Assembly (NCBI GenBank): GCA_016936665.1
Contig: JAFGXI010000017.1
Coordinates: 20,146 to 84,145, forward strand
Direction of reading: 5' to 3'
DNA length: 64,000 nt
Origin: Bacteroidales bacterium
Lineage (GTDB): Bacteria > Bacteroidota > Bacteroidia > Bacteroidales > JAFGXI01
Below are positions 4,522 through 54,576 of this stretch, in pieces. The position numbers and the translations under genes are program-made. A model generated the notes under the pieces. The model saw only the letters and a list, made by a program, of their open reading frames with translations, did not search any database and was not told the DNA's origin. Positions within the stretch are counted from its first letter, which is position 1. Every line of letters starts with the position of its first letter.

Positions 4522-5460
4522 TTATAATATTATCAATCTTTGAGTCGTATTATCAATTTTAACAAAATAAGATCCTCTCTTTAAATCGGAGATATCTATT
4601 TTAATATTATTTGTTGTTTTATTAAGAATAAATATCTTTTCGAGTTGTCCTGTTATGTTATAAATTTCTATAGCTTCATTTGGTATAGGAGATTCATGAA
4701 TTCTCTTGATAAACACAAAGTCGATAGCAGGATTCGGATAAATTTGCCAATCGCTCTTGTTTAGCTCCTCTACGCCACTATCATCGAAACTTAGCGTTAC
4801 AGCCCAATCATTAACTAAACCATCTACCCCAGTAAGCATATAATGAACTGTATTAGTATAATCGTTAATCGTTTCACCAGAAATTTGTTCTACTGAGCCG
4901 ATTTTAGCAATCGCACCCGGTGATATAGTAAAATCTGCAATTATACTCGATAAGTCAGTATTTTTAGTCACCTTTAAGCTTATGCTTTTCGCAGCGGCAT
5001 CGATAACAGCCTGTGTTACTTGACTGTCGAGCTCAAAGCTTAAAATATCGGCAGAGCTATATGATACAGGTGACATCCAAAGAAATGGATGATCTACATT
5101 CCCAATAATTAAATTGTTCGAGAACAAAACGAAATTATCAATCTCTGTGAGGTTTGAACTTTCATCCATCCATTTGAAGAAAATTGCATCGCCTGAACTC
5201 GCATTACTGTATATCGTTATTTGGTATAATTGATAAGTGCCATCGAGATCAGTTGGTTGACAAACGCCTACACAATCTTCATCTACAAACGCACCTAAAT
5301 ACGCATTTTGTTGACTCGTTGTTTGCGCATCTAAAGCTACATAGCCACTCATATTCATCGAAAATTGAAAATCGTTCGGATTGACAGACCATGGCTGAGC
5401 TATGAGTAAATTCATAGCCCAAACCAAAGTAGTCGTTAACATATATTTTACAGTTTTCAT
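4522..5460 (-). CDS. T9SS-sorted secreted protein. Its N-terminal domain is shared with the C-terminal part of the upstream giant protein
   Basis: 312 aa with a signal peptide. The C-terminus (IYPNPAIDFVFIK...GSYFVKIDNTTQRLIIL) is a type-A Por sorting domain. It starts 25 nt downstream of the giant gene. Confidence 0.75.
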   Translation of the reverse strand: MKTVKYMLTTTLVWAMNLLIAQPWSVNPNDFQFSMNMSGYVALDAQTTSQQNAYLGAFVDEDCVGVCQPTDLDGTYQLYQITIYSNASSGDAIFFKWMDESSNLTEIDNFVLFSNNLIIGNVDHPFLWMSPVSYSSADILSFELDSQVTQAVIDAAAKSISLKVTKNTDLSSIIADFTISPGAIAKIGSVEQISGETINDYTNTVHYMLTGVDGLVNDWAVTLSFDDSGVEELNKSDWQIYPNPAIDFVFIKRIHESPIPNEAIEIYNITGQLEKIFILNKTTNNIKIDISDLKRGSYFVKIDNTTQRLIIL

Positions 5461-5485: not shown

Positions 5486-8400
5486 TTATTCTTTAATTAA
5501 TTGCATTATTTCTGTATTGCCATTCACATTGACTTTAACAATATAAACACCTTCGGCAAGTTTCGAAACCGCATCTTTCAGCAATTCAACATCGTGGTAA
5601 CCCTCAGGAAGCTTGAGTGTTTGCATTTCTACAACGACTTCGCCTAAAGCATTATACAATGTGTAAGAAATAGCTTGGTCGTATTCTAAAACCATTCCTA
5701 TCGTTACTTGATGATTAAATGGATTTGGATAAACGCTGATATTTGAAACGCCTTCGAAACCATTCTTATTAAAGCTCAATTCGAAAGGTTCGTCTAATGT
5801 ACCTTGCCTGTCGTTTGCAAAGAAGACCATATGCTCGTTAGCCTCCATGCTTCCTAAATGATGGACGGCTTCAAAGCGAATCACTTCTTTAGAATTAGCA
5901 TTGATGGTTATAAAATGGCGCACACTTCCATCTTCCAAAATTTGTGCTTCGGCTTCACCACAAAGGCCTGCTTCGTTATAAGCCTTCAGTGTGTAGGCAG
6001 AAGGGTTGTCAATCTGAAGCTCAATAATCATTGCCATATTATCTTCTGTTGAAGGTAAATTAAAGATTTCAGGATCTTGACTTACAGACCTACTTACTAA
6101 ACCGCCATCGTAATTAAGGACACCGCCATTAGCACTGTACATTACATAACCCTCACCGGCTTGCATATAAGTTAAACTACCAACCCATCCTAATACAGAA
6201 CTATAAACTGCAAATTGGTGTTGCGACTTAATCATATCGTCATCTTGCGGATTGAGAGAAGATAAAGCCTCATCGATCGGTTTTTGAACCGATAAAGGAT
6301 AACCCACCCAGTTCCAACCGGCCGCTATTGGTATTTGAATGGTATCTGGGACGACTCTGTAACCCGACATTACTAAAGTTTGCGCCTGAGCTACTTTTAG
6401 CTTATAAGCACTTGTTACCTTAAGCTGATCAAGTTCTCCAAACCAATAGCCGTTAGCACGAACGTAAGCAAATTGTTGTTGATCTTTTACAAAATCGTTT
6501 TCATGTTGATTGAGTTGTGAGAAGGCTGTGTTCAGATCGTTAAATTCATCTGAATACACATTGAAAGATATCCAATTCCAACCCGCATCAAGTTGAATAT
6601 TTTGCTCTATATAATTGGTTGCATTAATTGGTAGAGGATTGCTCACAGAACCATACAATTGATCGGCAGCAAAAGTAAACTCTGGTGTAACCCTTGTATA
6701 AACGTTGCCTGTGCTGGCATCATATACTTTAAAATACATGGTCTCGCCATTCGTATTAGCATAAGCACTAATAAATGTTAGGTAAATATTTGCATCTTCG
6801 AAATAAGTGACATGAGATACACCTCTGCATTCATCACCAACAAAGCAAGCGACGATATCATTTTCGTCGGTAGATAAAGTATTATTGACACTGAGTTGGC
6901 CGATGACATTAGCTGATAAATCAAAGTTAGAAGGATCGACCGACCAATCTGGCGCATGACCATTTACTTGAACAGAAACACCTAAGCGCTCGTTATAATC
7001 CATAGAAGCGACTAATGAAATATCTGTTTGGTATGAACCAATATTAAGTTCTGGTAGAATGGTAATTTCTATCGTTTCCGTCTCAAGAGGAGTGAGCGTG
7101 CCACTGCTTGGAGAAACGTTCATCCATGAAGGAATATTAAGGATTTGATAATTTTCGTTTAAGCCTCCTTTATTTTGAATATCTACAGTAACAGTCGTCT
7201 CTTCTTCAACAAACTTTTCGATTGTTAAATCCTGAAGATTCCATACCACCTGATTTTTATCTACAAAAGCATTCCAAGATAAAGTAGAAGGCATCATGTT
7301 ATTGTTCATATCCTTTACACGCTTAATCGAAATGTCTAAAATTTGATTTTCGATTAAATTAGCTTGAATATTTGGTGTAATCACCACCTCGTCATCGTTG
7401 ACGACGTAGGTGTGAGGAATTGATACTTCCGGAAGTTGTAGCTTAATATTAGGGCTTTCCGTTGTAAAGTAAGCACTCTCTATTAAAGTATCCCCGGCAA
7501 TTCCAATATTGTCTTGCGTAAAGTTGGCCGATGTTTCGTTACTAATACTAGGATCGGCAATGGTAACATCCTCGAAAGGGACATAAGCTTTAAGCCCTAA
7601 CTCGTCTCCCACTAAATTATGACTCATGTAACGTTTTATTTGAGACTGAGTTCTGGCAGCATTCCACACTCTAAACTCGTCTATCATACCAGTTGTAAAC
7701 TGATCGTAATAATCTTGCATAGACAAATTCCACCAACGAGCCCCTAAAACCAATCTACTAGCACCAAAACCTTCGAAGTTAGCTACCGATTGTGTTTTCA
7801 CAAGTTCGCCATCGAAATAGACCGATAAGTAACCAATTCGGTTCATACTCATTGCAAAGTGATGCCATTGATCATCCAAATAATTTTGAGCAGCTATGGT
7901 GACATTATTACCATTATTCGTTATGGTAATGTTGCCATCGCTACCGGCTGTTATATTCCAAGAATTGATATTTGGTTCCTCATCAAAATTACCATTAGAA
8001 ACCAGTGTAGCATTGCTTACAGGCATCGCCATTTTATACCAAAATTCGAGAGTAAAATCGGATTGACTAGAGAAAGCCATCTGACCGGCAGGCATATCTA
8101 ATACATTGCTACCATTCAAGGCCAAAGCATGACCATTTCTACCAACCTGCCAAGTTGCATTGACAATAGCATTTCTACCAAAAGCAATATCTTCTGCTCT
8201 ATCGCCATTGGCTTCGTTCATTGGCCACAGACCATATAAACCTTGCTCGTATCCATTTAATATCTGCGCTTTCTGAGCGGCTATCTCTGTAGATGTTCTA
8301 GCATAATTCCAGATTCTAAATTCATGCATATTTCCATAAAAAGCAGAAGCATCATCGGCACAATACCCTATACTTAAACTGCCCTCTAAAGAGGTATACA

Positions 8401-11400
8401 CATCGGCTTCGAACACCTCAGGCGTACCTCCGGCATCGCTTAAAGCAAAGAGGGTAAAACCAGCCTCAGTCTCTTCATCGCCCTGATTGTAAACTACCGA
8501 GTAGAACGCCCAGTTACCAATATTGGTATAAGTTTCGCTTGAGCTAATCGTCTGGCCATCAACTTCAACTACAAAATGATTGGCAGCATCAAAGCCAATC
8601 CACAAACCACCTTGCGAAGGCGAACCAACAGAAACTAAATTGCTTCTTTGATCTATAGCATCACGCTTTGCCCAAAACTCAATTGTAAAATTCGTATGAT
8701 CTAAATTGATGTGATTGACCTGCAAATTATTGGCGATACCATCGAAATGAATCGATGCATCGTGTAATAAATAAGGATTATTAGTCAAATCGGTACCATT
8801 TGTAATACCACGAACATCAACATAATCGACATGCGAATATAAATCGCCCGAATTGATGGTTTCGTTAAACTTAACCGAAATATCTTCGCCATAAGACAAA
8901 ACGCCATCGGATGGCTGTGGCGTACCAAACGGTGTAGGTACTACTCTATCTATCACTCCATTTAAAGGATCTGTAATATATTCCGAGCCATCGGAACAAT
9001 TCGATTTTAAATAAATCTGATACTGACCATCGTTTAGGCTGGACAATGGGAAACTATAAGCCATGGTAGCATTGCCATTGATCCATGTTTTAGGCTCGTC
9101 GGCATCTAGAAAGTCTGTTTCATCTTTATAAAACACCATGGCAGTTGTTCTAGAACCACCCGGTATTGCATATTGGAATTCGATGGTTTCGAACTCAGTG
9201 CTATTGATATTATAATCTGAGATATTGAAACTTAAAGTATCATTATTATAGACATTGGCGGTCCAGTTATCATAAATCTGTTCGAAATCGACTGATGTAC
9301 AAGTTGGTGTAAAGTAAGCCGAAATAATAATAGTATCGGCAATATCGTCAACATCGTCGGTAGGATCGAACTGACATTGAGAATGTAAAATAACCTGAAT
9401 ATCTTCGTATTCGTTAATATCTTGCTGACCTTTTTCGATGGTAAGTGCTTTGTAAACAGTCTGTCCGGCAGGTATTAAAACAGCCACAGGTGTCCCCGAA
9501 ATACTTGCACCATCCATTTTTACAACAGCACCATTTGGATTAGACGTTGGCTCAACATATAAATTGTACCAACCATCATCCCCTGTTTCCGAGTTATTAG
9601 ACATGGCCAAATTAAAGACGGCAGCTTCTGTTTCCGGCACACCGGCAACGATATTATTATCGACAGAAATATTTGGCATTTCAATTTGCATAGTCGCTTG
9701 CGAAAGAAGCGTACCAGGATTATAGTATTCGGTATAAACAGCACCCTCGTATGGGCAAGAAGACTGACCTCCAACAGTTCTAAAGATTGGACCATAACCT
9801 TCTTCAGCATCTTTTCTCACATCTACTGAGAAATAATCGCCACCATCGCCATCGGCTAAAACAAAACCAATGGTCTGGCTGGTGGTTGTGTCGTTAACTG
9901 TATTGTTAGCAGTTGTGTATTCGTAGCCCTCTTCTAAGTTTAGTGTAAAGCCAAAACCATTTACAGAGAAGCCTAGCTCGGCCATAAAGTGTGGTGAAAG
10001 TGTAAACTCGAAGGTTTTATTCTCAGAACTTAAACTGTCAATTTCAACACTTGCTTCATAAACAACACCTGCATCAAATGATATATTCGAGGGAAAATTA
10101 GGATCGTCTACTGCTGTTACTTTAGCTTTTTCGTTATTTTTAAGAACCTTTATCCATTTATTAATCTGATTATTGTAATAACGAACCGAATCGATTAAAT
10201 CATCATTATCAGGGTTTGAGAAGACATAACTAGGGCCATCGTATTTATCGTCGGAAGCTTGAGCGCCCCAAATAGCATTATCGTCGTTATTGCTTAAAAA
10301 GTTTGAACTTTCTGTATCTGTTTCGACCAAAGTGTAATACTCATTATTGTTATCGTAGGCCAAGTTTCGAATCATTTGAAGATTCGGAATCAAATAGTTT
10401 TCGATATGATTTTGCGTATAAATAAAGGTTGTAGACACCTCTTTCCCCATGTGTAAACCAGTCTTTTTAGCAATTGTATAATAGGTGCCGTCGATTAATA
10501 TGGTATCTTCTATGGTTTCACCATCAACAGGCACCTCATCAACATCCATAATATTGATAAAGTTTGATAGACCGTAAATAAGATTATTACCATGACCTAA
10601 AAATAAGTCGCCCATATCACCAACATAAGCAGGATCTTCGCTGGTCGAGAAAGATTGATTGAACTCAATCGTTACATTTTCTTCGAACTCATTACCCCAA
10701 ACATGACTGTGCTCAACACCGACACCTATATTATTTTCAACTTCAAATTCGGTTTGGGTCGAGAAGAATGGCGTTCCTGTTACGAAAGTGGTTGATGTTC
10801 CTAACTGATACACTAAAGAAGAATTGCCTGTTTGTCCATGCGAAGAACTTGTAGTCACTGTTTTAGAAATCTCTAAACCTGCTTCCATGTACGAATAACT
10901 GTTCGAGCCAGGGGGGTCGCGCAAGACAAAATCGATGCTTGTAGGACCTTTAGTTACAAAGTTGCTACCTGTTGGGATATTACCCGACACATAACCATAA
11001 AATGGCGATTGCGACCACTCGTAATAATTAGAGCCTACTAATAATTTAACCTCTAATTTTTTAGTGTATGGTGCAGATAAATTCGGATAACCTCCAAAGA
11101 ACTCATATAAAGCTTGACCATTATCATTAAAACCTAGGGAAACTTGATTGGTATTGTTGGCACATTCGTTTATAATTTGTAACTCACCATCGGAAACCAC
11201 AACAGTATCGACAACGCCTGTTTCATCATTTGTATAGGTTTCGAAAGCCGTCACTATTAACTGATATGGCTGACCTAAAGAATACACCGGTTTTCCAAAA
11301 TTATAGTAGGCTGTATCGTTAACCATACCTGCTATGTTAATGGTATCTTGGGTATCGTTACCCGCATTTACTATATATTCCTCATCACCCAAGAACTTGG

Positions 11401-14400
11401 TACCATGTATATTATCAACTGATAATTGCGGCGTAGAGCGCCATATCCAATTTTTCTCTAAATTGTATTCATATGTTGTATCTAAAGACATTGAGCCGTC
11501 ATTATCGACGGTGTCTATAGTATATTGCAATGGGAAACAATTGGTTAGGGAAACCAACTGCGACTCTCCCACTAAGAAATTGTACTCATTGTTCACTTTT
11601 ACAGTATCAATCTTATAAACTTCAGGAGGCAAGTTGATTTCATACATCCCTGTATTATCGTTGGTATAGACAACAAGTGTTGTTTTATTACCATCTTCAA
11701 CATCGAGAATATAATCTTGCTCTGTAGTGAAGGTCAGCTTACAAATACCCAAGTTGTTGACTATAGGATTTTCATCCGAGCCCAAAGGCTTAGCTTGTTC
11801 AACAGCTCCCCCGACCACTCTACCAGCCAATTTAACAGTGGTATTGTCAAAGAATTCAATATTATAAATAGGTTCGTTAAAGAAATGATAGGTAAAAGCA
11901 GAATCGCTTTGTTGCAATGGGTAATAAGCCGATACAAAGGTATGTCCTGATTTTTCAACACTGATGTAATGCTCGCCAATCGGAACTTGAATATCGAACT
12001 GACCACTGTTATCGGTCATTACAGCCTGATTGTTGTAGCCTTGAATATAATTACCATCGATTTTAACGTAGGCATTTTTCACGGGCATGTTTGTGTTTTC
12101 GTATGTTAAGCGCCCTGTAGCTCTAAATGAAGACTGATCGGTAAAATCGACATTATTATGTACAGGTTCACTATCGCCGATAAACAAATTGACATCGGTA
12201 GGGTTAAACTCATGCACCCCTAGAAATGGAACCACACTAAAAATATTACCGGAACCGGAATACCTTACCCCTTTAATAACATAATTACCGTTGGCATCGG
12301 TAATGCCAGATGGGTGTAATTGTTCGAAACTAGGGGTTTGATTGGACCAAGTTGCAAATACTTGTTCATTGCCCTGAGGAACGACCAAATGACGTTTATT
12401 AAATTCGCCATCTGTTTTAGAAATATCGTAGGCCGCTGTACCAAAACCTTCGTCTAAACGGTAATATGCAATTAAATGCGCTTCGTTTCCATTGAGGATT
12501 CTAGTATGATCGTTTTCTATTTGAACATCGGATCTAACAGATTGATAAAGGCGAACCTCATCGATGTTACCTTTGTAAAAATTTGAGTATCCATTAGCAG
12601 AACCAACCATCACTTTATTTGCACCCATTAGATTGATATTATCTACATCCATAGCTTGTAAAACCGCCATCGAATTATCCAGAGTTCCATCGTTATGAAA
12701 TTCGCCATTAACATAGAGTTGCATAAGACCTGTTTCCGGATCGAAGTTAACCGCTAAATGCGCCCATTCATCTGCATTTAATACAGAATCGCTTTGTACA
12801 GTAACTAAAGCGGTTGTGCCTTGAATATTGCCCGTCATGATACTTGAATTTATACCACAAACTGGTCGCATATTGCTTAAGCCTAAATAGAAAATTCCTG
12901 AATAAGCCGAAAAGATAATTTTTTTCTCGTTACCGGTCATTGAGGAAGGCTTTACCCATACATCGCAAGAAAATGGTTGGTATATAAGCGAATCGTCAAC
13001 AAATTTGTCAGTACCTAAATAATCTTGAATCCCGTCGAAATATAAACTGTAAGATTGAACGCTTTCTTCTGAGCAGATGCGCACTTCTGCATTTTCTACG
13101 GCATTACCTCCTTGATAGGTTATTTTACCTGCTACTATGCCAGTACTGGTTCTAAAGCCGACTGTTCCTATAGTATCGGAGCGCGTTTCGACTCCGGCAC
13201 AATCGCCAACAGCTTGAATATAATAAATGTACATTTCGTTAGCTTCAGTGCTAATATCTTCATAATAAGTTGCATTAGCATTATTAACAGTAGTTAACAA
13301 AGAAAAAGTTTCGCCATTTTTCTTTCTGTAAATCTCATAATAATCAACATCTCCTAATTTATTTGGATTAGCCGTCCACTCCAAAACTACTTTTTGGTTA
13401 AAATATCCCTTAGAAGCGTCGAAATACGACTTAGTTTCTGCATTTTCGACATAAGTAAATACATTATCAAACTTATTTTCGAGCACTGAGTAATTAGACT
13501 GAAGTGAAGTAGGACCAGCTGCCGTATTACAAGAGTTCCAAGCCTCAATTTTATAATAATATTCATTACACATTAAAGCCGTGCCGTCTTCGTATTCACG
13601 TGCATCTGGACTTATACTATTATCTAACAACTCGAAGCTACCTGCACTACCTTCTTTTCGGTACACTTTAAATTCTGTTGGAGGGCCGCCTGGTCCTGCT
13701 GCCGTATAATCCCAAGTAGCATAGATATTGCCATTTAAGGTATCGGACTGAGCGTTGCTTGGAGCTGCTGTACAAGCTTTATTACCCATACCAGAGGTTG
13801 TAGCGCTCCAGTTTTCGCAACCATCTCCCCCGCCATCAATTTTATACAAAATCTCCTTGCCATAATCATTCACATCTACATCGTAAGTGTAGGATGTTAA
13901 AGAGGAATTAACGTTACTATTTAATGTATACCAAGTGCCATTTACCTGATATTTAATTGTGTAAGCTACCGGCAAGGCATCGGGGGCTACCCACGTCAAC
14001 TCAACTGTACCATCGCAACTGGTGTGGGGCACATCCAAGTTTTGAACCTGTGCATACATTTTAGTAAGAACAGTAATATGTTCTTCTTCTGATTGATAAA
14101 CTGAGCTTGACTCGTTAAGAGGATTATCGTTGTTGTACCATGCATTGGTTACATAATATTCGTATTCTGTAGCAGCTTCAATGTCTTCATCGATATAATA
14201 GTTAGAATTGGTTCTACACAAAAGTGTATAGTTACTCTCTGCAGGAGTCGTTAATCGTTTACGATATACATAAGCGGTACCATGGTCGTCTTTTTCCCAA
14301 TCCAAGCGATTTGTAATACATGTTTTAGAAATTGTTAAGTTATAAACTTTTGGTGGATGGGCTGGATGATATTCATTATAATTTGTATTCATGTTGTATT

Positions 14401-15286
14401 CGACCATACCTATACCCAGAGTCTCATGAGTTGATGAGTTGATGTTATAAGAGTTTGAACTGGTATAATCTCGAAGCATATTAACAATTAACTTATTATG
14501 AAATACATCGTCGATGTCTGTAAAAACGGATGATGCACCAGAAAACGACTCATAGCTATGAAAGGTTTTGTCTTTTACATATGATATTTGAGATTGGTCT
14601 AAAACCATGTCCCAATGTCTGAAACCGGACATATAACCGTAAAACGACTCGTCATGATCTTCGGCAGTGCTACCGCCAAGCCCTTCTCCTAAATATGTGT
14701 ATGTTTGTCTGTCGTAGTTTCCATCAGAACTACTGTAAGAAATAAGATCAAAGCCTGTTTGTGTTTGTTTAAGACTACCATTAACATATAATCGAACCGT
14801 CCCATCTTCATCGGTTGTACTGGGAGAATCGAAAGTAACGCAAACATGATTCCATCTATCTTTCCAATTATTGGTATAATCTGTTTTAGAAAATTCCCAT
14901 ATTAAATCGCTGTTACTACCAGAGTCATTCCCATCAGAAACTCTAATGGCCCAACCCGAAACTGACTTACTTTCAAAAGCCACTAAGAAAGAATTAAAAT
15001 CGTCATCCCATCTTCCATAGCCAAACATAAACTCGTAAGCTTCTGAATTGACATCCCACTGGGGATAAACCCAGAATTCGAGCGTAAAATCTTCGTCCAT
15101 ATACCACTGCATACCCGAACTTTGTTGAGCATTTGAAATTCGAACATAAGAATTACGCTCAAAATCGGTGGCATAGAAAGGACGATCTACGCTTGTATTA
15201 CTCGAAAGACAAGTTTGAGAAAATAAACTTTGAATTGTACTCAACCAAACGATAAGAACAATTGCAGAAAACATTTTTTTGTTCAT
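5486..15286 (-). CDS. giant (3266 aa) T9SS-sorted surface protein with at least five LamG (concanavalin-A-like) domains, FN3-like and carboxypeptidase-regulatory-like domains
   Basis: Single uninterrupted 9.8-kb ORF with signal peptide MNKKMFSAIVLIVWLSTIQSLFSQ. LamG C-terminal signatures recur (IDEVRLYQSVRSDVQI, MHEFRIWNYARTSTEI, IDEFRVWNAARTQSQI). FN3-like segments are present (VELTWVAPD..YTIKYQVNG; FKVYRKEGSAGSFELL; YYEIYRKKNGETFSLL). The T9SS CTD is VYPNPFNHQVTIGM...GVYIVKVNVNGNTEIMQLIKE. Confidence 0.9.
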   Translation of the reverse strand: MNKKMFSAIVLIVWLSTIQSLFSQTCLSSNTSVDRPFYATDFERNSYVRISNAQQSSGMQWYMDEDFTLEFWVYPQWDVNSEAYEFMFGYGRWDDDFNSFLVAFESKSVSGWAIRVSDGNDSGSNSDLIWEFSKTDYTNNWKDRWNHVCVTFDSPSTTDEDGTVRLYVNGSLKQTQTGFDLISYSSSDGNYDRQTYTYLGEGLGGSTAEDHDESFYGYMSGFRHWDMVLDQSQISYVKDKTFHSYESFSGASSVFTDIDDVFHNKLIVNMLRDYTSSNSYNINSSTHETLGIGMVEYNMNTNYNEYHPAHPPKVYNLTISKTCITNRLDWEKDDHGTAYVYRKRLTTPAESNYTLLCRTNSNYYIDEDIEAATEYEYYVTNAWYNNDNPLNESSSVYQSEEEHITVLTKMYAQVQNLDVPHTSCDGTVELTWVAPDALPVAYTIKYQVNGTWYTLNSNVNSSLTSYTYDVDVNDYGKEILYKIDGGGDGCENWSATTSGMGNKACTAAPSNAQSDTLNGNIYATWDYTAAGPGGPPTEFKVYRKEGSAGSFELLDNSISPDAREYEDGTALMCNEYYYKIEAWNSCNTAAGPTSLQSNYSVLENKFDNVFTYVENAETKSYFDASKGYFNQKVVLEWTANPNKLGDVDYYEIYRKKNGETFSLLTTVNNANATYYEDISTEANEMYIYYIQAVGDCAGVETRSDTIGTVGFRTSTGIVAGKITYQGGNAVENAEVRICSEESVQSYSLYFDGIQDYLGTDKFVDDSLIYQPFSCDVWVKPSSMTGNEKKIIFSAYSGIFYLGLSNMRPVCGINSSIMTGNIQGTTALVTVQSDSVLNADEWAHLAVNFDPETGLMQLYVNGEFHNDGTLDNSMAVLQAMDVDNINLMGANKVMVGSANGYSNFYKGNIDEVRLYQSVRSDVQIENDHTRILNGNEAHLIAYYRLDEGFGTAAYDISKTDGEFNKRHLVVPQGNEQVFATWSNQTPSFEQLHPSGITDANGNYVIKGVRYSGSGNIFSVVPFLGVHEFNPTDVNLFIGDSEPVHNNVDFTDQSSFRATGRLTYENTNMPVKNAYVKIDGNYIQGYNNQAVMTDNSGQFDIQVPIGEHYISVEKSGHTFVSAYYPLQQSDSAFTYHFFNEPIYNIEFFDNTTVKLAGRVVGGAVEQAKPLGSDENPIVNNLGICKLTFTTEQDYILDVEDGNKTTLVVYTNDNTGMYEINLPPEVYKIDTVKVNNEYNFLVGESQLVSLTNCFPLQYTIDTVDNDGSMSLDTTYEYNLEKNWIWRSTPQLSVDNIHGTKFLGDEEYIVNAGNDTQDTINIAGMVNDTAYYNFGKPVYSLGQPYQLIVTAFETYTNDETGVVDTVVVSDGELQIINECANNTNQVSLGFNDNGQALYEFFGGYPNLSAPYTKKLEVKLLVGSNYYEWSQSPFYGYVSGNIPTGSNFVTKGPTSIDFVLRDPPGSNSYSYMEAGLEISKTVTTSSSHGQTGNSSLVYQLGTSTTFVTGTPFFSTQTEFEVENNIGVGVEHSHVWGNEFEENVTIEFNQSFSTSEDPAYVGDMGDLFLGHGNNLIYGLSNFINIMDVDEVPVDGETIEDTILIDGTYYTIAKKTGLHMGKEVSTTFIYTQNHIENYLIPNLQMIRNLAYDNNNEYYTLVETDTESSNFLSNNDDNAIWGAQASDDKYDGPSYVFSNPDNDDLIDSVRYYNNQINKWIKVLKNNEKAKVTAVDDPNFPSNISFDAGVVYEASVEIDSLSSENKTFEFTLSPHFMAELGFSVNGFGFTLNLEEGYEYTTANNTVNDTTTSQTIGFVLADGDGGDYFSVDVRKDAEEGYGPIFRTVGGQSSCPYEGAVYTEYYNPGTLLSQATMQIEMPNISVDNNIVAGVPETEAAVFNLAMSNNSETGDDGWYNLYVEPTSNPNGAVVKMDGASISGTPVAVLIPAGQTVYKALTIEKGQQDINEYEDIQVILHSQCQFDPTDDVDDIADTIIISAYFTPTCTSVDFEQIYDNWTANVYNNDTLSFNISDYNINSTEFETIEFQYAIPGGSRTTAMVFYKDETDFLDADEPKTWINGNATMAYSFPLSSLNDGQYQIYLKSNCSDGSEYITDPLNGVIDRVVPTPFGTPQPSDGVLSYGEDISVKFNETINSGDLYSHVDYVDVRGITNGTDLTNNPYLLHDASIHFDGIANNLQVNHINLDHTNFTIEFWAKRDAIDQRSNLVSVGSPSQGGLWIGFDAANHFVVEVDGQTISSSETYTNIGNWAFYSVVYNQGDEETEAGFTLFALSDAGGTPEVFEADVYTSLEGSLSIGYCADDASAFYGNMHEFRIWNYARTSTEIAAQKAQILNGYEQGLYGLWPMNEANGDRAEDIAFGRNAIVNATWQVGRNGHALALNGSNVLDMPAGQMAFSSQSDFTLEFWYKMAMPVSNATLVSNGNFDEEPNINSWNITAGSDGNITITNNGNNVTIAAQNYLDDQWHHFAMSMNRIGYLSVYFDGELVKTQSVANFEGFGASRLVLGARWWNLSMQDYYDQFTTGMIDEFRVWNAARTQSQIKRYMSHNLVGDELGLKAYVPFEDVTIADPSISNETSANFTQDNIGIAGDTLIESAYFTTESPNIKLQLPEVSIPHTYVVNDDEVVITPNIQANLIENQILDISIKRVKDMNNNMMPSTLSWNAFVDKNQVVWNLQDLTIEKFVEEETTVTVDIQNKGGLNENYQILNIPSWMNVSPSSGTLTPLETETIEITILPELNIGSYQTDISLVASMDYNERLGVSVQVNGHAPDWSVDPSNFDLSANVIGQLSVNNTLSTDENDIVACFVGDECRGVSHVTYFEDANIYLTFISAYANTNGETMYFKVYDASTGNVYTRVTPEFTFAADQLYGSVSNPLPINATNYIEQNIQLDAGWNWISFNVYSDEFNDLNTAFSQLNQHENDFVKDQQQFAYVRANGYWFGELDQLKVTSAYKLKVAQAQTLVMSGYRVVPDTIQIPIAAGWNWVGYPLSVQKPIDEALSSLNPQDDDMIKSQHQFAVYSSVLGWVGSLTYMQAGEGYVMYSANGGVLNYDGGLVSRSVSQDPEIFNLPSTEDNMAMIIELQIDNPSAYTLKAYNEAGLCGEAEAQILEDGSVRHFITINANSKEVIRFEAVHHLGSMEANEHMVFFANDRQGTLDEPFELSFNKNGFEGVSNISVYPNPFNHQVTIGMVLEYDQAISYTLYNALGEVVVEMQTLKLPEGYHDVELLKDAVSKLAEGVYIVKVNVNGNTEIMQLIKE

Positions 15287-15467
15287 GACTCGACAAATTT
15301 TAGTTTTTGTGATTTTGGGTTTTCACAATAATTATTCAATTAACTTTTGTAAAGTTAGAACGAAAGTATATATAGTGCTTTAAAAAAGGTAAGACATTCG
15401 ATAGGACATAATCCTAAAGATGTTGTTAAACAGTGTTTAAAAAAAATTCAAAATCAAATAGTTAGCA

Positions 15468-16913
15468 TTACAAACTATTCAAGTACTGAAATAAATCGCT
15501 GTTTTGATCAAGATTAAGTTTCTTTCTTAACCTTTGTCTACGTTTATTAATTGAGCTTAATTGAACATTTAAAATTTGAGCTATTTCCTGAGACTTGAGT
15601 TGCATTTTAAGAAGCGCACAAATCTGCAGATCATTTTCATTTAAGTTAGGATGAGTTGCTTTCAGTTTTGAGTTAAACAGAGGATGGTTTTTTCTAAAAT
15701 TTACAAAAAAGTTATCCCACTTAATACTGGTATCGATATTAGCGTTTATAAGATCTAAAGCCTCTTTTTGCTGATTTTCTTTAAGGTGTTTCTTTATGTT
15801 TTTTAGTAGATCTTTTTGTGCTACCCTGTGGGCAATGGAAGAAGTCAATTCTTTGTCGTTGGAGTCGAGCTGTTTCGATAACAAAGCATTTTCGTATAAA
15901 CTAATCTGATGTTTCTGCTTTAAGTTCTTTCGTTTAACTACAAAAAGCCATGCAAAGGAAAGCAGTACAATCGCTAAAACAATCGTAAGAATCACATAAA
16001 ACCATTTCTCTCTTTCCTCTTGCAATCGCCGATTCTCCACAATTTCAATTTCTTTTTTTTTTGTTTCTAACTCATACTTAGCAGACATTTCGTTGATCTT
16101 CTGATCCATACGATCGTAGAAATATCGTTTTTGGAGAATCCTTGCCTTTGATAAATAGAAATATGCAGAATCGAAAATATTTGCATACTCATAAATATTT
16201 GCTTTCCTTAAGTACAAGCGCATAAGCATATTGTGTTGATTTTGAGATTCCATAAGTGGTAATACATTGTCAACTACTGCTAAACTGGCTTTATAGTGCT
16301 TTTGTTTTAAATACACGCCACTTAAATTTATCGCTACATTGGCAGCATATAAATCCAAATGACTATCCTTGTAAATCGAATATGCTAATTTAAATTTTGC
16401 CTCTGCTTCGGAAAGTAAATTTCGCATGGAGTACACGTATGCAATCTCATTGTAAGAAGAGGCTAGCAAATATTTAAAATTATTTTCCTTAGCCATTTTA
16501 ATACAACGATCGGAATATAAAATTACAGAATCTTTATTATTAGGGAAATCTGCCCATTCGTTATACAAAGCAGCAATACGATTATAAGCTTTGGCTATAT
16601 AAAAAGGCTCTAGCGTTCGTTTAGCAACCAACCCAAGCAACAAATCAATGCCTTTTTGGTATTCTCGCTTTTGACGGTACGCTTCTGCTATTAACAAGGA
16701 CAATGTATCTTTTGAGACTTCGCTAACATTTTTATATTCTAGTAATTTAAACAATTTTTCTAAGGCTAAGTCCGGCATCGATTGATCGAGATGCTCTTGT
16801 ATAAAGAAATAAGTTGAATCGATTGATGGCAAGGACTCTGCTTTAAGCTTATGGATTGAGAACAAAGCTGATAATAAAATAGTCACAAATAAAACAAGCG
16901 TTTTGCCAGTCAT
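15468..16913 (-). CDS. membrane-anchored TPR sensor with a cytoplasmic LuxR/GerE-like HTH (one-component regulator)
   Basis: ORF 15468-16934 starts at TTG; ATG at 16913 gives MTGKTLVLFVTILLSALFS (signal). TPR-like Y/A-rich repeats, one TM segment (WFYVILTIVLAIVLLSFAWLFVV), and a C-terminal HTH NENDLQICALLKMQLKSQEIAQILNVQLSSINKRRQRLRKKLNL. Confidence 0.75.
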   Translation of the reverse strand: MTGKTLVLFVTILLSALFSIHKLKAESLPSIDSTYFFIQEHLDQSMPDLALEKLFKLLEYKNVSEVSKDTLSLLIAEAYRQKREYQKGIDLLLGLVAKRTLEPFYIAKAYNRIAALYNEWADFPNNKDSVILYSDRCIKMAKENNFKYLLASSYNEIAYVYSMRNLLSEAEAKFKLAYSIYKDSHLDLYAANVAINLSGVYLKQKHYKASLAVVDNVLPLMESQNQHNMLMRLYLRKANIYEYANIFDSAYFYLSKARILQKRYFYDRMDQKINEMSAKYELETKKKEIEIVENRRLQEEREKWFYVILTIVLAIVLLSFAWLFVVKRKNLKQKHQISLYENALLSKQLDSNDKELTSSIAHRVAQKDLLKNIKKHLKENQQKEALDLINANIDTSIKWDNFFVNFRKNHPLFNSKLKATHPNLNENDLQICALLKMQLKSQEIAQILNVQLSSINKRRQRLRKKLNLDQNSDLFQYLNSL

Positions 16914-16931: not shown

Positions 16932-16939
16932 CAAATTTA
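16932..16939 (-). promoter_or_regulatory. candidate -7 box TAAATTTG (Bacteroidota TAnnTTTG consensus) for the 15468-16913 regulator
   Basis: The minus strand reads TAAATTTG about 20 nt upstream of the ATG at 16913. The paralogous regulator has an identical octamer at 50297-50304. Confidence 0.35.
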
Positions 16940-17023: not shown

Positions 17024-17070
17024 TCACAAAAAAACTGCCTCCAAGTTACAAAAACAACTTTTTGGCAGTT
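17024..17070 (-). terminator. rho-independent terminator after the 326-aa LamG gene
   Basis: Minus strand: AACTGCC..AAGTT..AACTT..GGCAGTT nested hairpin followed by TTTTTTTGTG. Confidence 0.6.
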
Positions 17071-17122: not shown

Positions 17123-18103
17123 TTAATGTTTTACTATGAGTTTCTGAGTAGATTCGCCGATGCGAAGCAAATAAATGCCATTTTTTAAATTCGAAACATT
17201 TAAAATCAAATTTGAAGAACCATTTCGATTGGCCTCTAATAGAACTTGTTTCCCAGCAATATTGAATAATTGCACAGTTGTACCCTCACTCACATTCACA
17301 TACACAGACTTATCAGCAGGAATGGGATAAATCATGCTTTGTTGAACATCTCTTTTATCTATCATAGTATTAATACAATGGTCCGTCCATACTTCGCTAA
17401 TATCTGCGTTATAGAGTAAGGCAGGTTTGTCCGAATTAGATAAATCGGTAGCCCTATCGTTATTTTCTTCATCCATATTCCAATAACCAATTAAGCCTGT
17501 TGTTGAAGGATCGACCGAACTATTCATGTTATTTTGTATGTCGGATTGTGTTCTTGCATAATTCCAATATCGCACCTCGTCTAACTCAGCATCTATCACC
17601 GTAGATAAATTCATTGGCCTCGCTCCCATTAAAAACATGGTAGGATCGCTTGAGATTTCAATATTATTGAAATACTGCTCAATAATCATTTCTCCATTGA
17701 TAAATAAACGATAGGTAGAATCGGCTTCGTCTAATGTATAGGCCATGTGGTACCATACGTTAGTATCTAAGTCAATAGTCGCTTCTGCATTTGAAAAAGC
17801 AGTATTATAAAAACTAATTCTAATCGTATTGGTTGAGTAGTTATACCAGCAAACCCTTGTGCCTTTTTCGGCTGCGATATAAGTAGAAGGGAAAAATGTA
17901 AAAGTGCTTAGAAAAGAATCAATTTTTACCCAATACTCTATTGTAAATGAGCTGGTTTGATAAACAACGACTGTATCGGTTTGTAAATAATCGTCAAGGC
18001 CATCAAACTGTACGGTATTGCACAATATTGTATTATTGTCTTGCTGTGCTTCAACGATTAAAACAGCTGAAAATAGACTTAAAATTAATATATAAGTTTT
18101 CAT
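17123..18103 (-). CDS. LamG-domain T9SS-sorted secreted protein
   Basis: 326 aa with a signal peptide. LamG signatures are FTIEYWVKIDS and LDEVRYWNYARTQSDIQ. The CTD is IYPIPADKSVYVNV...GIYLLRIGESTQKLIVKH. Confidence 0.8.
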   Translation of the reverse strand: MKTYILILSLFSAVLIVEAQQDNNTILCNTVQFDGLDDYLQTDTVVVYQTSSFTIEYWVKIDSFLSTFTFFPSTYIAAEKGTRVCWYNYSTNTIRISFYNTAFSNAEATIDLDTNVWYHMAYTLDEADSTYRLFINGEMIIEQYFNNIEISSDPTMFLMGARPMNLSTVIDAELDEVRYWNYARTQSDIQNNMNSSVDPSTTGLIGYWNMDEENNDRATDLSNSDKPALLYNADISEVWTDHCINTMIDKRDVQQSMIYPIPADKSVYVNVSEGTTVQLFNIAGKQVLLEANRNGSSNLILNVSNLKNGIYLLRIGESTQKLIVKH

Positions 18104-48634: not shown

Positions 48635-50275
48635 CTATTCATTATCGATATTTTGAATAAACGTATGCAAATCTTGCTCGTTTGACAAGTTTAGTTTTTT
48701 TCGCAAACGATGACGTGCCGTTTTAACGCTATCCGGCGAAATGTTAAGGAATGAAGCCATTTCTTTTATGTTGAAATTAATTTTTATCAGTGCACAAATT
48801 TTATAATCGTTTGAAGTTAAGTTATATGAGTGTTGTTTTAATTTGTAATAAAACTGTTGATTTATTTCTTCGAAATGGGTTTTAAATTTGTTCCACTCTT
48901 CGTCATTGTGTTCGTTAGTTTTTAATGACGCCTTAACCGCTTTGATTAAATGTGGAATATCGTTTTTGTTTTCTGAAACAATTTTGTCAATTTCTTTAAT
49001 TTGATCATTGTATTTTATTTTATTTAAAGCATAAGAAACAAGTTGTTTGTTCTTTAAGTCTATGTCGGATTTTAATAGTTTTTCATTTGTTTTTTGTTTC
49101 TCGATATTCAAGTTTAATATTTCAATATTTCGATTTCTTAATTTAATACGAGTGAGCAAGAATAAGATTGTTAACGCGGCTAAAAACAATATAGATATAA
49201 GAATAAAAATATTTTTATTCTTATTTTTCTTTTCAAGTTCTAAGTTTTTTTCACGTTCCGATAGTAATTTGATAGTTTCGTTTTTTTCTTTCAAATTATA
49301 CACTACTTGAAGATTGATTAGTTTTTCCTTTATTTCAGCACCTTGAATTGAATCGGACAATTGATTAAATAGCTCAAAGTAATACAAAGCTTGATTTGAA
49401 TTATTAGTGGCTTTGTAATATTTATACTGTGATTTAAGAAGTAATTGTTTATTGTAAATGCCAGAAATTTTATTTAGTATAGTTTTATTCTCATGAATAA
49501 TCTTGAGAGCCTTAGAGTAATCGTTCAACGCCAATAGTACATTAATTATTGAATAATTAAGATGAAATATCTGGTATTCATTTTTTAGATTTTTATACAA
49601 AACTTTAGTCTGTTCAAAGTAATCTAATGCTTCTTGAAATTGGCCCATACCAAAATAAGCTTCCCCGATATTATGCATAGAAATGGGAATTGTCGATTCT
49701 TGACCAATTTTTTTTCTTAATTTGAGACTTAAGTTCGAAAAAAAGAGTGAAGAATCATACTTTTCTTTAGACAAGTATATTAAGCTGATGTTTGAAAAGG
49801 CACCTGCTATTTCGGCAGTATCTTTTAATTCTTTTTGAATTTCAAGAAATTTATTAAAATAAAGTAGGCTTTGTTCATAGTCTCTTACCCCCTGAAAAAC
49901 TAGACCAAGTTCGTTATATATTTTAGAAGTTAATATATCGTTTTTGTTATCTTTCAGATCGTTTAATGCTTCGAATAATGCATTGGCCGCTTGCTCATAT
50001 AGTCCGAAAATTTCATACGAATATCCGATTTCGTAGTGCGAAATTGCGACATATTTATCGACGGTCGATCTTTTTGCAATTTCAAGCAATTGTTGGCTCA
50101 ATAATATCCTTTCTGATAAATTATTGTTTTGTAATTTGTATATCTCGTTTAGTTTCTCTTTAAATGTTTTTTCAATATCACTAACAGGGCGTTGTTCGTA
50201 TTGTTTAGCCCAAGAAACTTCAACAAATACCAAAAAGATTATTAAAAAGGGCGTGCTTAGACCTATAAGCTTCAT
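48635..50275 (-). CDS. membrane-anchored TPR sensor with a cytoplasmic LuxR/GerE-like HTH (paralog of 15468-16913)
   Basis: 546 aa with an N-terminal signal/TM, TPR repeats and a TM segment (IFILISILFLAALTILFLL). The C-terminal HTH is SNDYKICALIKINFNIKEMASFLNISPDSVKTARHRLRKKLNL. Confidence 0.75.
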   Translation of the reverse strand: MKLIGLSTPFLIIFLVFVEVSWAKQYEQRPVSDIEKTFKEKLNEIYKLQNNNLSERILLSQQLLEIAKRSTVDKYVAISHYEIGYSYEIFGLYEQAANALFEALNDLKDNKNDILTSKIYNELGLVFQGVRDYEQSLLYFNKFLEIQKELKDTAEIAGAFSNISLIYLSKEKYDSSLFFSNLSLKLRKKIGQESTIPISMHNIGEAYFGMGQFQEALDYFEQTKVLYKNLKNEYQIFHLNYSIINVLLALNDYSKALKIIHENKTILNKISGIYNKQLLLKSQYKYYKATNNSNQALYYFELFNQLSDSIQGAEIKEKLINLQVVYNLKEKNETIKLLSEREKNLELEKKNKNKNIFILISILFLAALTILFLLTRIKLRNRNIEILNLNIEKQKTNEKLLKSDIDLKNKQLVSYALNKIKYNDQIKEIDKIVSENKNDIPHLIKAVKASLKTNEHNDEEWNKFKTHFEEINQQFYYKLKQHSYNLTSNDYKICALIKINFNIKEMASFLNISPDSVKTARHRLRKKLNLSNEQDLHTFIQNIDNE

Positions 50276-50296: not shown

Positions 50297-50304
50297 CAAA
50301 TTTA
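50297..50304 (-). promoter_or_regulatory. candidate -7 box TAAATTTG for the 48635-50275 regulator
   Basis: Minus-strand TAAATTTG about 22 nt upstream of the ATG at 50275. Confidence 0.35.
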
Positions 50305-50506: not shown

Positions 50507-50626
50507 ATGAATAAACTGCTTTCAATAATTGGTCTCGTGTTTATAGCTTTTGGCGTTTTGCATTTGGGCTGGGAACAGAGCTATAATGTTTTTCAATTTA
50601 TTAATAAACACAAATATCAAATATGA
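50507..50626 (+). CDS. possible 39-aa single-TM peptide
   Basis: Hand translation: MNKLLSIIGLVFIAFGVLHLGWEQSYNVFQFINKHKYQI. Its stop overlaps the next gene's start (ATGA at 50623-50626). Confidence 0.3.
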   Translation: MNKLLSIIGLVFIAFGVLHLGWEQSYNVFQFINKHKYQI

Positions 50627-53073: not shown

Positions 53074-54576
53074 ATGAAAAAAATATTTATTATTTCGGCA
53101 ATTCTGTTTTTAATAACACAATCATTTTCTCAGACTTGGGAACAAAAAGGACTAGACATTACAGGGTCAGAAACTTACGAACAAATGGGTTTTACTACAG
53201 CACTTAATGAAACCGGTGATATTATGGTTTCAGGTCGTCCTTATACCGATTTCGGATACAGCGACGGAGGCTCCGTTATGGTATTTCAATATCTTTTAAA
53301 TCAATGGGTGCAACTTGGGCAAACCATTCATGGAAATTACACTTATGGATATCTTGGTTATAGCATCGACATCAATGCTTTGGGCAATATTATTGTTGCA
53401 GGTGCCTATGGAAACAACAATGCAAGAGGCGAAGTTAAAGTTTATCAATACAACAATGGACAATGGGAACAAATGGGACAAACCCTTTCGGGAAGCTACG
53501 ACAGTGACGAGTTAGGTTATGCTGTTTCTATCAACGAAGATGGTACAACCATAGCTTTATCAGTCGCTCAAGAAAACACAAGCGAAATATTAGTTGGAGC
53601 AGTATATATTTACGAATTTGATGGAGCAACTTGGAATCAAAAAGGAAATAAAATAACAGGTGTAAACGCATACGACCGAAGCGGGAATGACATATCGATC
53701 AATGGCTCAGGTGATGTGATAATAATTGCAACAAAAGGTGCCGAAACCTCAAATGGAAATAATTCAGGAAATGTTAAAGCATTTGAATGGTCGGGCGAAG
53801 CATGGGTGCAGAAAGGTACCGACATCATTGGAGTGCACACCGGCGAATATTTTGGATACAGTGTTGATGTCGATAATTTAGGCGAAACAATTGTTGTTGG
53901 AACTGTAAGAAACGGCCAACAGTACACCGATGCAGGAAGAGTTGCCGTCTATAAATACATCAATGATAATTGGATTCAAGTAGGTCAAAACCTATATGGC
54001 GATTATGCTAACGATTTCTTTGGGCACGATGTAGCCATCAGTGGAGACGGGAACCGAATTATATGTAGTTCGGATTATTATAGCCAGGCTGACAATGGAA
54101 AAGTTTCTGTTTTCGAAATCAATCAAGATACAATTATTCTGTCTGCTGAATTTATTGGCGATAATAGTTCCGATTTATTTGGGACTTCAGTTGCCATTAG
54201 CCAAAATGGCAATACAATTTCTGTGGGTGCCGTAGATTACGATGGCCCACAAAACGAAATTACAAGTATGGGATTAGTTAGAGTTATGGAACTTAATCAA
54301 ACATCAATACCTTTCGAACCTTCCAATCAAAAAATAAGTTGTTACCCAAACCCGGCAATTCAGTATGTCGTTATTGAAAACTTAGACGCTAAATATAATT
54401 ATCTAGCCGAATGGTTCGATGTTAGCGGAAGAAAAATAAGCCAAACCTACGTCTCTTGCTCAAATAATAAAATAACAGTACCTTCCTTGGGAGACTCAAT
54501 GTATCTTCTAAAAGTTTCTAGAGGCTTTTATTCCCAAGAATTCAAAGTTATTGTCGGCTCAAAAGCATTAAAGTAA
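53074..54576 (+). CDS. FG-GAP-like beta-propeller T9SS-sorted protein
   Basis: 500 aa with a signal peptide. It has the same G.S(V/I).I...G...(V/I)G repeat type as 18151-20715. The CTD is CYPNPAIQYVVIEN...SMYLLKVSRGFYSQEFKVIV. Confidence 0.8.
   Translation: MKKIFIISAILFLITQSFSQTWEQKGLDITGSETYEQMGFTTALNETGDIMVSGRPYTDFGYSDGGSVMVFQYLLNQWVQLGQTIHGNYTYGYLGYSIDINALGNIIVAGAYGNNNARGEVKVYQYNNGQWEQMGQTLSGSYDSDELGYAVSINEDGTTIALSVAQENTSEILVGAVYIYEFDGATWNQKGNKITGVNAYDRSGNDISINGSGDVIIIATKGAETSNGNNSGNVKAFEWSGEAWVQKGTDIIGVHTGEYFGYSVDVDNLGETIVVGTVRNGQQYTDAGRVAVYKYINDNWIQVGQNLYGDYANDFFGHDVAISGDGNRIICSSDYYSQADNGKVSVFEINQDTIILSAEFIGDNSSDLFGTSVAISQNGNTISVGAVDYDGPQNEITSMGLVRVMELNQTSIPFEPSNQKISCYPNPAIQYVVIENLDAKYNYLAEWFDVSGRKISQTYVSCSNNKITVPSLGDSMYLLKVSRGFYSQEFKVIVGSKALK

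Follow-up and report, generated by a model that had tools for sequence, protein, structure and literature searches.

A membrane-spanning regulator with a tetratricopeptide repeat sensor and a candidate tandem operator before a giant type IX secretion cargo gene in a Bacteroidales genome

The stretch of DNA analyzed here, referred to as the window, comprises 64,000 nucleotides (nt) of a Bacteroidales metagenome-assembled genome (MAG) with a G+C content of 35.6% (contig JAFGXI010000017.1, positions 20,146 to 84,145). It contains three minus-strand genes, g1 (15468-16913), g2 (20875-22961) and g3 (48635-50275), each of which encodes a signal peptide, a tetratricopeptide repeat (TPR) region, a single transmembrane (TM) segment and a C-terminal helix-turn-helix (HTH) domain. 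This common design, with g2 disrupted, had been described in the original prediction, and all three genes were found to carry it. On the minus strand, the order around g1 is the g2 pseudogene, an FG-GAP cargo gene, a LamG cargo gene, a terminator-like hairpin, g1, a giant LamG cargo gene and a small cargo gene, where cargo denotes proteins with the C-terminal domain (CTD) of the type IX secretion system (T9SS). A tandem repeat is situated in the interval from g1 to the giant gene, and comparison of orthologous loci showed that the association of regulator, repeat and cargo gene is conserved across species that carry g1 orthologues.

Three membrane regulator genes

The features of the regulators and of the region around the candidate operator are as follows.

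15468..16913, minus strand: g1, predicted membrane-spanning one-component regulator of 481 amino acids (aa), with signal peptide, TPR sensor, TM helix, linker and LuxR-like HTH
16185..16823, minus strand: predicted periplasmic TPR domain of g1, residues 31-243, 12 helices in the AlphaFold2 model
15939..15995, minus strand: TM helix of g1, VILTIVLAIVLLSFAWLFV, residues 307-325, Kyte-Doolittle value 2.95, inside the continuous model helix 247-378
15471..15911, minus strand: predicted cytoplasmic output module of g1, residues 335-481, helical linker and LuxR/GerE-like HTH
15519..15638, minus strand: HTH core of g1, ENDLQICALLKMQLKSQEIAQILNVQLSSINKRRQRLRKK
16932..16939, minus strand: -7 box of g1, TAAATTTG, 18 nt before the ATG, matching TAnnTTTG
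15389..15408, minus strand: candidate operator TGTCCTATCGAATGTCTTAC, a tandem direct repeat composed of TGTCCTAT-CGAA-TGTCTTAC
15350..15357, minus strand: candidate -7 box for the giant gene, TAACTTTA, with one mismatch, 31 nt past the repeat, at a position conserved in orthologous loci
5486..15286, minus strand: giant cargo gene and predicted target of g1, encoding a secreted protein of 3266 aa with four LamG (Laminin_G_3) matches and Por_Secre_tail
4522..5460, minus strand: small cargo gene, 312-aa T9SS-CTD protein with Por_Secre_tail at 50.8 bits and a sub-threshold DUF5018 match, 25 nt downstream of the giant gene
48635..50275, minus strand: g3, intact regulator of 546 aa with signal peptide, TPR, TM (49154-49210) and LuxR-like HTH
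50297..50304, minus strand: -7 box of g3, TAAATTTG, 21 nt before the ATG
20875..22961, minus strand: g2, pseudogene of a signal peptide-TPR-TM-AraC regulator, with two lesions
22993..23000, minus strand: -7 box of g2, TACATTTG, 31 nt before the GTG

In all three proteins, an N-terminal hydrophobic segment with a plausible signal-peptidase site is followed by one further TM-like peak (residues 307-325 in g1, 356-374 in g3 and 481-499 in g2; Kyte-Doolittle values of 2.8-3.1) that is flanked by the more basic residues on its C-terminal side, and the TPR matches in Pfam fall between both hydrophobic segments. The AlphaFold2 model of g1, built with 43 homologues and a mean predicted local distance difference test score (pLDDT) of 85.9, consists of a signal helix, the 12 TPR helices, and an uninterrupted helix at 247-378 that spans the TM segment and leads into a C-terminal helical bundle with the HTH. 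Hydropathy, charge bias, the placement of the TPR matches and the g1 model are all consistent with the topology proposed beforehand. In g1 and g3, the N-terminal signal sequence is predicted to direct the TPR solenoid to the periplasm, and a single long helix to pass through the inner membrane into a cytoplasmic module of about 150 aa that ends in the HTH. The TPR domain of g1 contains motifs that are strongly conserved in the family alignment, and its fold was found by Foldseek to be closest, among solved structures, to peptide- and protein-binding TPRs, namely kinesin light chain KLC, LGN and the phage Rap receptor. No HisKA or HATPase_c kinase domain was found in g1, g2 or g3 in a Pfam scan.

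The output domains were assigned by profile comparison. Run against all solved structures, profile A2, derived from the last 115 residues of 19 family members, matched the LuxR/NarL/FixJ HTH chains of EsrB, DevR, EL222, EvgA, NarL and VpsT at E values of 3e-4 to 1e-2; further matches, including SdiA and others, reach E 0.06, and among all significant matches the sole other HTH class is represented by a single RpiR-family chain (3iwf, E 0.0035). The HTH of g3 scored 20.6-23.3 bits, below the cut-off of 23.5 of Pfam GerE (PF00196), which is passed by the family member P0028 with 25.4 bits. For g2, the C-terminal piece at 20875-21105 (its last 76 codons) matched HTH_18 with 53.7 bits against a cut-off of 33.6. 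The HTH types read earlier from the letters, LuxR/GerE-like in g1 and g3 and AraC-type in g2, agree with these structure-profile matches, the sub-threshold Pfam scores and the HTH_18 match, respectively.

The three genes had also been called paralog-like. In fact, g1 and g3 can be aligned over 395 residues from the TPR region through the TM segment to the C-terminus with 24% identity (E 2e-17), but the alignment of g2 with either is confined to the TPR and TM regions, and pairwise identities among the three are only 22-24%. By these alignments, they are distant relatives within a superfamily and not recent paralogues. The g1 protein is identical (100%) to NCBI entry JXR60_07215 of a Bacteroidales MAG, and g3 is identical to an entry on the same 184.6-kb contig named 'tetratricopeptide repeat protein'. 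A longer alternative open reading frame (ORF) of g1, with a TTG start at 16934, begins within the -7 box and differs from the annotated start. The coding sequence of g2 is interrupted by a frameshift in an A5 run at 21454-21458, which ends a 516-aa ORF, and by an in-frame TAG at 21106-21108 within the AraC HTH ('YVS*IINE'), where a CAG-like codon is read as TAG. The frameshift at the homopolymer could be an assembly error or slippage; since the two lesions are independent, a true pseudogene is more likely.

An identical -7 box about 20 nt before the ATG had been noted for the two intact genes, and it is indeed present, at 18 nt in g1 and 21 nt in g3. TAnnTTTG is the general -7 promoter consensus of Bacteroidota; it occurs within 80 nt upstream of 12 of the 43 window ORFs versus 4% of random 80-nt windows, and a further gene (62050) also has TAAATTTG. 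Because this generic element is widespread in the window, the identity of the g1 and g3 boxes holds no specific information, and its use as a sign of common control was rejected. Between the LamG cargo gene at 17123-18103 and g1, a hairpin AACTGCC-N24-GGCAGTT followed by T7 was observed at about 17030-17072 on the minus strand; it was missed by the terminator scan because its loop is long. The hairpin is likely a terminator, and g1 therefore probably has its own promoter.

A tandem repeat between g1-type regulators and cargo genes

Orthologous loci were collected from GTDB species representatives, one genome per species, by scanning with a 43-sequence family alignment, which resulted in 80 loci. 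The class of g1-type sensors was defined with a hidden Markov model (HMM) of the g1 periplasmic domain (residues 25-300), which retrieved 82 proteins at E <1e-60, and the synteny set consists of 24 non-redundant loci with LuxR-type orthologues. CTDs were called with a model built from five Pfam-verified tails of the window, and Pfam agreed with six of the six calls that were re-tested.

In the LuxR-type loci, the gene following the regulator on the same strand (+1) encodes a CTD in 6 of the 10 cases in which the fetched DNA includes its C-terminus, compared with 0/22 for the preceding gene (-1) and 3/98 for genes at least four positions away (Fisher p=8e-6). Most of the other +1 genes are ORFs of great length that continue past the locus end. 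When the 3266-aa protein was used as a phmmer query, an orthologue of the giant protein was found near g1 orthologues in 10 other loci, directly downstream in nine of them: in L005 it is complete (3204 aa, with CTD), and it is likewise present in L006, L007, L009, L015, L018 and L025, fragmented in L019, cut off in L003 and located one gene further on in L004. Four more downstream genes at locus edges encode proteins with 51-72% identity to CTD-bearing proteins of other loci. Altogether, with orthology included, 19 of the 21 informative loci encode T9SS cargo downstream of the g1 orthologue (p=6e-17), the two exceptions being a lipoprotein esterase (L022) and a citrate transporter (L002). Next to relatives of the histidine kinase (HK) type, a CTD gene was found in 0/42 cases at +1 and 0/39 at +2, and the CTD background in the fetched loci is 58 of 789 ORF tails (7%). 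The suggestion that these genes are dedicated regulators of local cargo is supported for g1, by the 19 of 21 loci and the promoter-linked repeat described below, but it is not supported as a general rule, as the neighbors of g2 and g3 relatives are mixed.

The regulator-to-cargo intergenic regions of the LuxR-type loci have in common the motif TGTCnTAC-N4-TGTCnTAC. In the window, the exact core TGTCNTA-N5-TGTCNTA occurs once, at 15390-15408, which is also the sole match at one mismatch or fewer; no further copy was found elsewhere in the window at up to two mismatches, and the repeat was not found upstream of the window's other four CTD genes. Among the fetched loci, 19 contain the exact core, and all 19 are of the LuxR type with the motif always on the regulator's strand. 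It is intergenic and downstream of the regulator in 18 of the 19; in the other, L024, the match lies about 90 nt inside the called +1 ORF, upstream of which there is a better copy with one mismatch. At up to two mismatches, 26 matches were counted in 446 kb of LuxR-type loci versus 3 in 611 kb of HK-type loci, all three of them at two mismatches, and none was found at zero or one mismatch in HK- or AraC-type loci. The repeat is present in 24 of 25 LuxR-type loci, the window included, and the locus without it, L002, is the only one whose downstream gene product is not exported. In one locus (L016), a second copy is located 67 nt upstream of its third cargo gene.

The distance from the regulator's stop codon to the repeat ranges from 0 to 838 nt (0-70 nt in most loci). 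From the repeat to a -7 box the spacing is fixed at 30-32 nt, with a box that is exact in 12 of 24 loci and carries a single mismatch in a further 9, for a chance expectation at this spacing of 0.5% and 6.4%, respectively; beyond the repeat and the -7 box, the aligned intergenic regions contain almost no information. No intrinsic terminator between g1 and the giant gene was detected in the terminator scan. From its distance to the -7 box, the repeat would be placed at about -45 to -64, immediately before the -33 element, where an activator site would be expected. Two HK-type loci, L038 and L042, possess the giant orthologue and are devoid of the repeat, so the repeat follows the LuxR-like DNA-binding module and not the target gene or T9SS cargo as such.

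Sensor outputs, known systems and a proposed mechanism

The 82 proteins with a g1-type sensor were found to end in different output domains: 24 are LuxR-like, 45 contain HisKA_3/HATPase_c, 3 are of the AraC type and 10 are unclear, with examples confirmed by Pfam. The periplasmic domain is recognizably the same across the three outputs (HMM E values of 1e-66 to 1e-116), in agreement with the earlier proposal that outputs were swapped on a common sensor. A phylogeny of the sensor had been suggested as a check for such swaps; the neighbor-joining tree of the sensor domain resolved one clade per output type, which indicates that the swaps are few and old, and frequent recent domain swapping was rejected on the same ground. 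In L042, a kinase gene at 9698-12196 (HisKA_3/HATPase_c with the g1-type TPR) is followed by a response regulator with REC and GerE domains; L038 ends within its kinase gene. In both, the giant LamG orthologue is transcribed divergently from the kinase gene. Judged from domain content, the g1-type sensor is also wired as a two-component system, beside the same giant gene in these two loci.

The output module is very widespread, with 14,490 matches at E<=1e-3 among 1.84 billion cluster representatives at 50% identity. Among the matches listed, it is C-terminal, in proteins of about 480-660, 915-1015 or 300-400 residues, including Y_Y_Y+GerE proteins of about 920-1015 aa. A REC domain was also observed in combination with the g1-like linker-HTH module of about 150 aa in about 30 clusters of 323-aa proteins (one of 311 aa; P0089-P0120); the module therefore also serves as the output of response regulators. 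Both g1 and g3 are probably members of a large, mostly Bacteroidota family of membrane-spanning one-component transcription factors.

The original prediction knew of no characterized member of this class. This has to be amended, as SusR and BguR are characterized membrane-spanning one-component regulators of the same overall design, and the class is known in outline through them. BguR of Formosa agariphila is a one-component activator whose deletion abolishes induction of a laminarin polysaccharide utilization locus (PUL), and SusR is the only earlier example of the design according to the same study (bioRxiv 10.64898/2026.01.10.698779). [quoted passage not shown] The cytoplasmic parts of g1 and g3 are 34-35% identical over 145-153 aa to P0166, a 941-aa Y_Y_Y+GerE protein (E 4e-22 and 1e-21; for g1, 34% over 153 aa at the C-terminus of P0166), which shares the architecture of BguR, so that the likeness to BguR itself is one of architecture and not of established orthology. 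BguR differs in its sensor, a tandem beta-propeller with Y_Y_Y, whereas the sensor of g1 and g3 is TPR only and all-helical in the g1 model, and in its targets, beta-glucan PULs as opposed to the T9SS cargo or lipoprotein genes beside g1 and g3. No SusC/D pair adjoins g1 or g3 among their window neighbors.

SusR (BT3705) of Bacteroides resembles g1 and g3: it sits in the inner membrane, joins a sensor in the periplasm through a membrane crossing to a cytoplasmic HTH at its C-terminus, and has no phosphorelay. It activates adjacent genes for envelope proteins, and its predicted operators are direct repeats; SusR-like regulators and hybrid two-component systems (HTCS) were predicted to bind direct repeats (PMC3878776). 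Its sensor is also of the TPR type, judged by the Pfam family name TPR_SusR (PF28559), which matches relatives of g1, g2 and g3 weakly but is absent from the precomputed match lists of g1 (P0001) and g3 (P0121). In an AraC-type relative with a g1-type sensor, a sub-threshold match to DUF6377 covers the membrane-proximal region. Membership of g1 and g3 in the SusR-like DUF6377 family (PF19904) was rejected: the C-terminal half of g1 reached E=2 and 8.4 bits against a cut-off of 36.7, and g3 gave no match. Further differences are the DNA-binding domain of SusR, described as unlike other families whereas the HTH of g1 and g3 is LuxR/GerE-like, its PUL targets and maltose ligand as compared with the T9SS cargo genes predicted for g1, and the spacing of its predicted sites, 67-77 bp apart versus 12 bp for the g1 repeat units.

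More distant likenesses were found. The TPR-sensor kinases, represented in 45 species by g1-type sensors joined to HisKA_3/HATPase_c with a REC+GerE regulator after them, recall FimS of Porphyromonas gingivalis, where a periplasmic TPR sensor also precedes a TM helix. The NCBIfam model of FimS can be aligned to residues 89-466 of g3 at E 6e-20 and to g2 at E 4e-34, with scores far below its 600-bit cut-off. FimS controls fimbriae, a surface structure, and it acts by phosphotransfer to FimR, while g1 and g3 are without kinase or receiver domains. The BT3442 family of Bacteroides thetaiotaomicron (NCBIfam NF053779) aligns with g3 residues 70-534 over model positions 96-551 of 563 and with g1 residues 358-485 over positions 438-559, at 30-38 bits against a cut-off of 940. 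BT_3442 is a TPR protein that heads a cluster of lipoprotein and MACPF genes and likewise lies beside surface-protein genes; it is uncharacterized, and the likeness carries no functional information. ToxR and CadC are also single-pass membrane proteins that couple a periplasmic sensor to DNA binding, and ToxR recognizes direct repeats, but their topology is opposite, with an N-terminal OmpR-like winged helix and a C-terminal sensor, and they have no sequence relationship to g1 and g3. MalT combines a LuxR-type HTH with a TPR-like sensor and has asymmetric boxes arranged as direct repeats upstream of the promoter; Pfam TPR_MalT matches g2. MalT differs as a cytoplasmic, ATP-dependent protein of the STAND (signal transduction ATPases with numerous domains) class without a membrane segment.

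Based on these comparisons, a model is proposed as the probable, though by no means certain, reading: g1 is a membrane one-component regulator that binds the tandem repeat and activates the giant T9SS cargo gene, g3 is of the same kind, and g2 is a dead copy. A periplasmic ligand would bind the TPR domain of g1 and alter dimer packing along its TM helix; two membrane-tethered HTH domains would then bind TGTCnTAC-N4-TGTCnTAC at 15389-15408, and the bound protein would switch on the LamG T9SS gene at 5486-15286 and probably the small CTD gene too. The latter is possibly in the giant gene's operon, as suggested by the short gap alone. In this model g3 would be the same kind of protein, and g2 the dead copy of a sister architecture with AraC output.

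Several points weigh against this model. Beyond the architecture, synteny and motif of g1, all mechanistic steps are inferred, from its ligand and its binding to DNA to whether it raises or lowers transcription. The HTH of g1 scores 14.8-15.6 bits against the GerE cut-off of 23.5, and the pLDDT of the g1 model is lowest, 53-64, at cytoplasmic residues 350-400. The window's own sites are imperfect, with one mismatch in the -7 box TAACTTTA and one repeat unit reading TGTCCTAT instead of ending in TAC. Inverted repeats are the more frequent targets of LuxR-type proteins, and it is unusual for a repeat to have a 12-bp period. In Maribellus comscasis, a cultured relative considered as a possible experimental system, the regulator (GM418_12360 in strain WC007) and a small CTD gene are present, but a single half-site is left, at the right spacing. 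Many +1 genes leave the fetched locus, so that their CTD is deduced from orthology. Finally, g3 has no relative above 29% identity, and the neighbors of g2 and g3 relatives are varied, including periplasmic binding proteins and some CTD proteins.

Among the alternatives, the one that survives best, unlikely as it is, holds that the repeat is a promoter element of a different factor and that g1 is a membrane scaffold or an anti-sigma-like protein whose C-terminus resembles sigma-70 region 4. The C-terminal domain of g1 indeed scores alike against Sigma70_r4_2 and GerE, direct repeats are atypical for LuxR-type dimers, and binding of g1 to the repeat is a prediction. The repeat, however, occurs solely beside genes for the LuxR-like module; HK-type loci lack it, including those with the giant gene, and so do the upstream regions of the other four CTD genes of the window. 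Furthermore, the homologous module in the BguR-type architecture belongs to a genetically proven class of activators with a predicted site between regulator and target.

A slightly smaller chance is given to g1 binding the repeat as a repressor or dual regulator. The direction of regulation cannot be read from sequence, and as the g1-type gene in most loci ends within 70 nt of the repeat, the bound protein could block read-through. On the other hand, the site lies upstream of the -33 region, 31 nt from the -7 box, with no overlap with the core promoter; the -7 box is imperfect in about half of the loci, as is common for activator-dependent promoters; and both BguR and SusR are activators. A third alternative, that the adjacency to cargo is incidental in CTD-rich genomes and that the regulators control something else or nothing nearby, seems improbable: the 7% CTD background, the absence of CTD genes beside HK-type relatives, the mixed neighbors of g2 and g3 relatives and the CTD-less direct neighbor of g3 would fit it, but in the g1 subfamily the association is directional and conserved, with cargo at +1 and never at -1, often involves the same giant orthologue alongside a conserved promoter-linked repeat, and yields Fisher p values of 8e-6 to 6e-17 against distant genes in the same loci.

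As to the signal received by g1, it is conceivable, at long odds, that the TPR domain senses not a nutrient from outside but the regulator's own cargo or the state of the T9SS, for instance by binding the CTD or unfolded LamG repeats of the giant protein in the periplasm. Such sensing is compatible with the nearest solved folds, which are peptide- and protein-binding TPRs, and with the strict one-to-one pairing with cargo. If it holds true, each regulator-cargo pair would be a private feedback loop that matches the synthesis of a 3000-residue protein to secretion capacity.

To our knowledge, what is understood of T9SS regulation concerns mainly the machinery (PorX/PorY/SigP in Porphyromonas), with little on the activation of individual cargo genes, especially giant adhesin-like ones. 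The comparison yields a complete testable unit, made up of a sensor-regulator, a candidate operator of 20 bp whose distance from the promoter is fixed, and a defined target gene. In addition, the occurrence of the same sensor as a one- and a two-component system, in two loci beside the same giant gene, provides a natural comparison of designs. As the output module is widespread and only SusR had been described before BguR, most membrane one-component regulators of this class are unexplored. No papers on TPR-LuxR regulators of T9SS cargo were found in the open-access literature, and the combination of a TPR sensor, a BguR-like LuxR-type output, a T9SS cargo target and a tandem operator with a 12-bp period appears to be undescribed.

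Neighbors of g2 and g3 and the remaining genes

The further genes adjoining the three regulators are the following.

17123..18103, minus strand: LamG + T9SS-CTD protein upstream of g1, 326 aa (Pfam)
18151..20787, minus strand: FG-GAP + HYR + T9SS-CTD protein directly downstream of g2, 878 aa, likely true start at 20715
50623..53055, plus strand: lipoprotein with Big_7 and BNR/Ycf48-like domains and without a CTD, 810 aa, immediate divergent neighbor of g3
53074..54576, plus strand: FG-GAP + T9SS-CTD protein, 500 aa, second gene from g3, divergent

Por_Secre_tail (PF18962) was found above threshold in 4522-5460, 5486-15286, 17123-18103, 18151-20787 and 53074-54576, and not in 50623-53055 (Pfam); the in-house CTD model detected no CTD gene beyond these five among the 43 ORFs of the window. 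All five are within two genes of g1, g2 or g3; as the CTD genes are clustered, this proximity is not a set of independent events. The claim that every copy abuts T9SS cargo is accurate for g1 and g2, whose LamG and FG-GAP neighbors carry Por_Secre_tail, but g3 adjoins the lipoprotein gene without a CTD, and its cargo gene is one gene further.

The genes at 50623-54576 on the plus strand are candidate targets of g3, for which no orthologues above 29% identity were found that could serve for footprinting. Four neighborhoods of distant g3 relatives include one protein with a CTD, a TonB-dependent receptor accompanied by a phytase, trimeric proteins of lectin-like type, and a contig end. Intact homologues of g2 with TPR, TM and AraC domains exist, such as P0181 (36% identity, 96% coverage), and the g2-type TPR region occurs in fusions with kinases, SpoIIE phosphatases, cyclases and CHAT domains as well. 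Because the neighborhoods of the relatives are mixed (six plus two were considered), no T9SS association is claimed for g2- and g3-type proteins.

Where g3 and the lipoprotein operon diverge, a perfect inverted repeat of 9 nt, AATTGACAA-N24-TTGTCAATT, was observed at 50434-50475, with TTGTC cores like those of the g1 repeat; it could be the operator of g3. A 39-codon ORF with one hydrophobic helix, MNKLLSIIGLVFIAFGVLHLGWEQSYNVFQFINKHKYQI, was found at 50508-50627 on the plus strand, and its TGA and the start codon of the gene for the 810-aa lipoprotein overlap (ATGA), a sign that the two may be translationally coupled.

Divergently from g2, the plus-strand region 23234-29712 begins with a verified TetR-family regulator gene followed by genes of 450, 348 and 1135 aa, whose sizes, the domain scan having been made for TetR only, fit an outer-membrane factor, an adaptor and a resistance-nodulation-division (RND) pump. 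Outside the window, in Flagellimonas eckloniae (L093, 8001-17562), three TPR regulators (614, 581 and 618 aa) are interleaved with two proteins, of 560 and 571 aa, which lack both annotation and Pfam matches, an arrangement that is a repeated cassette of a regulator plus an unknown gene.

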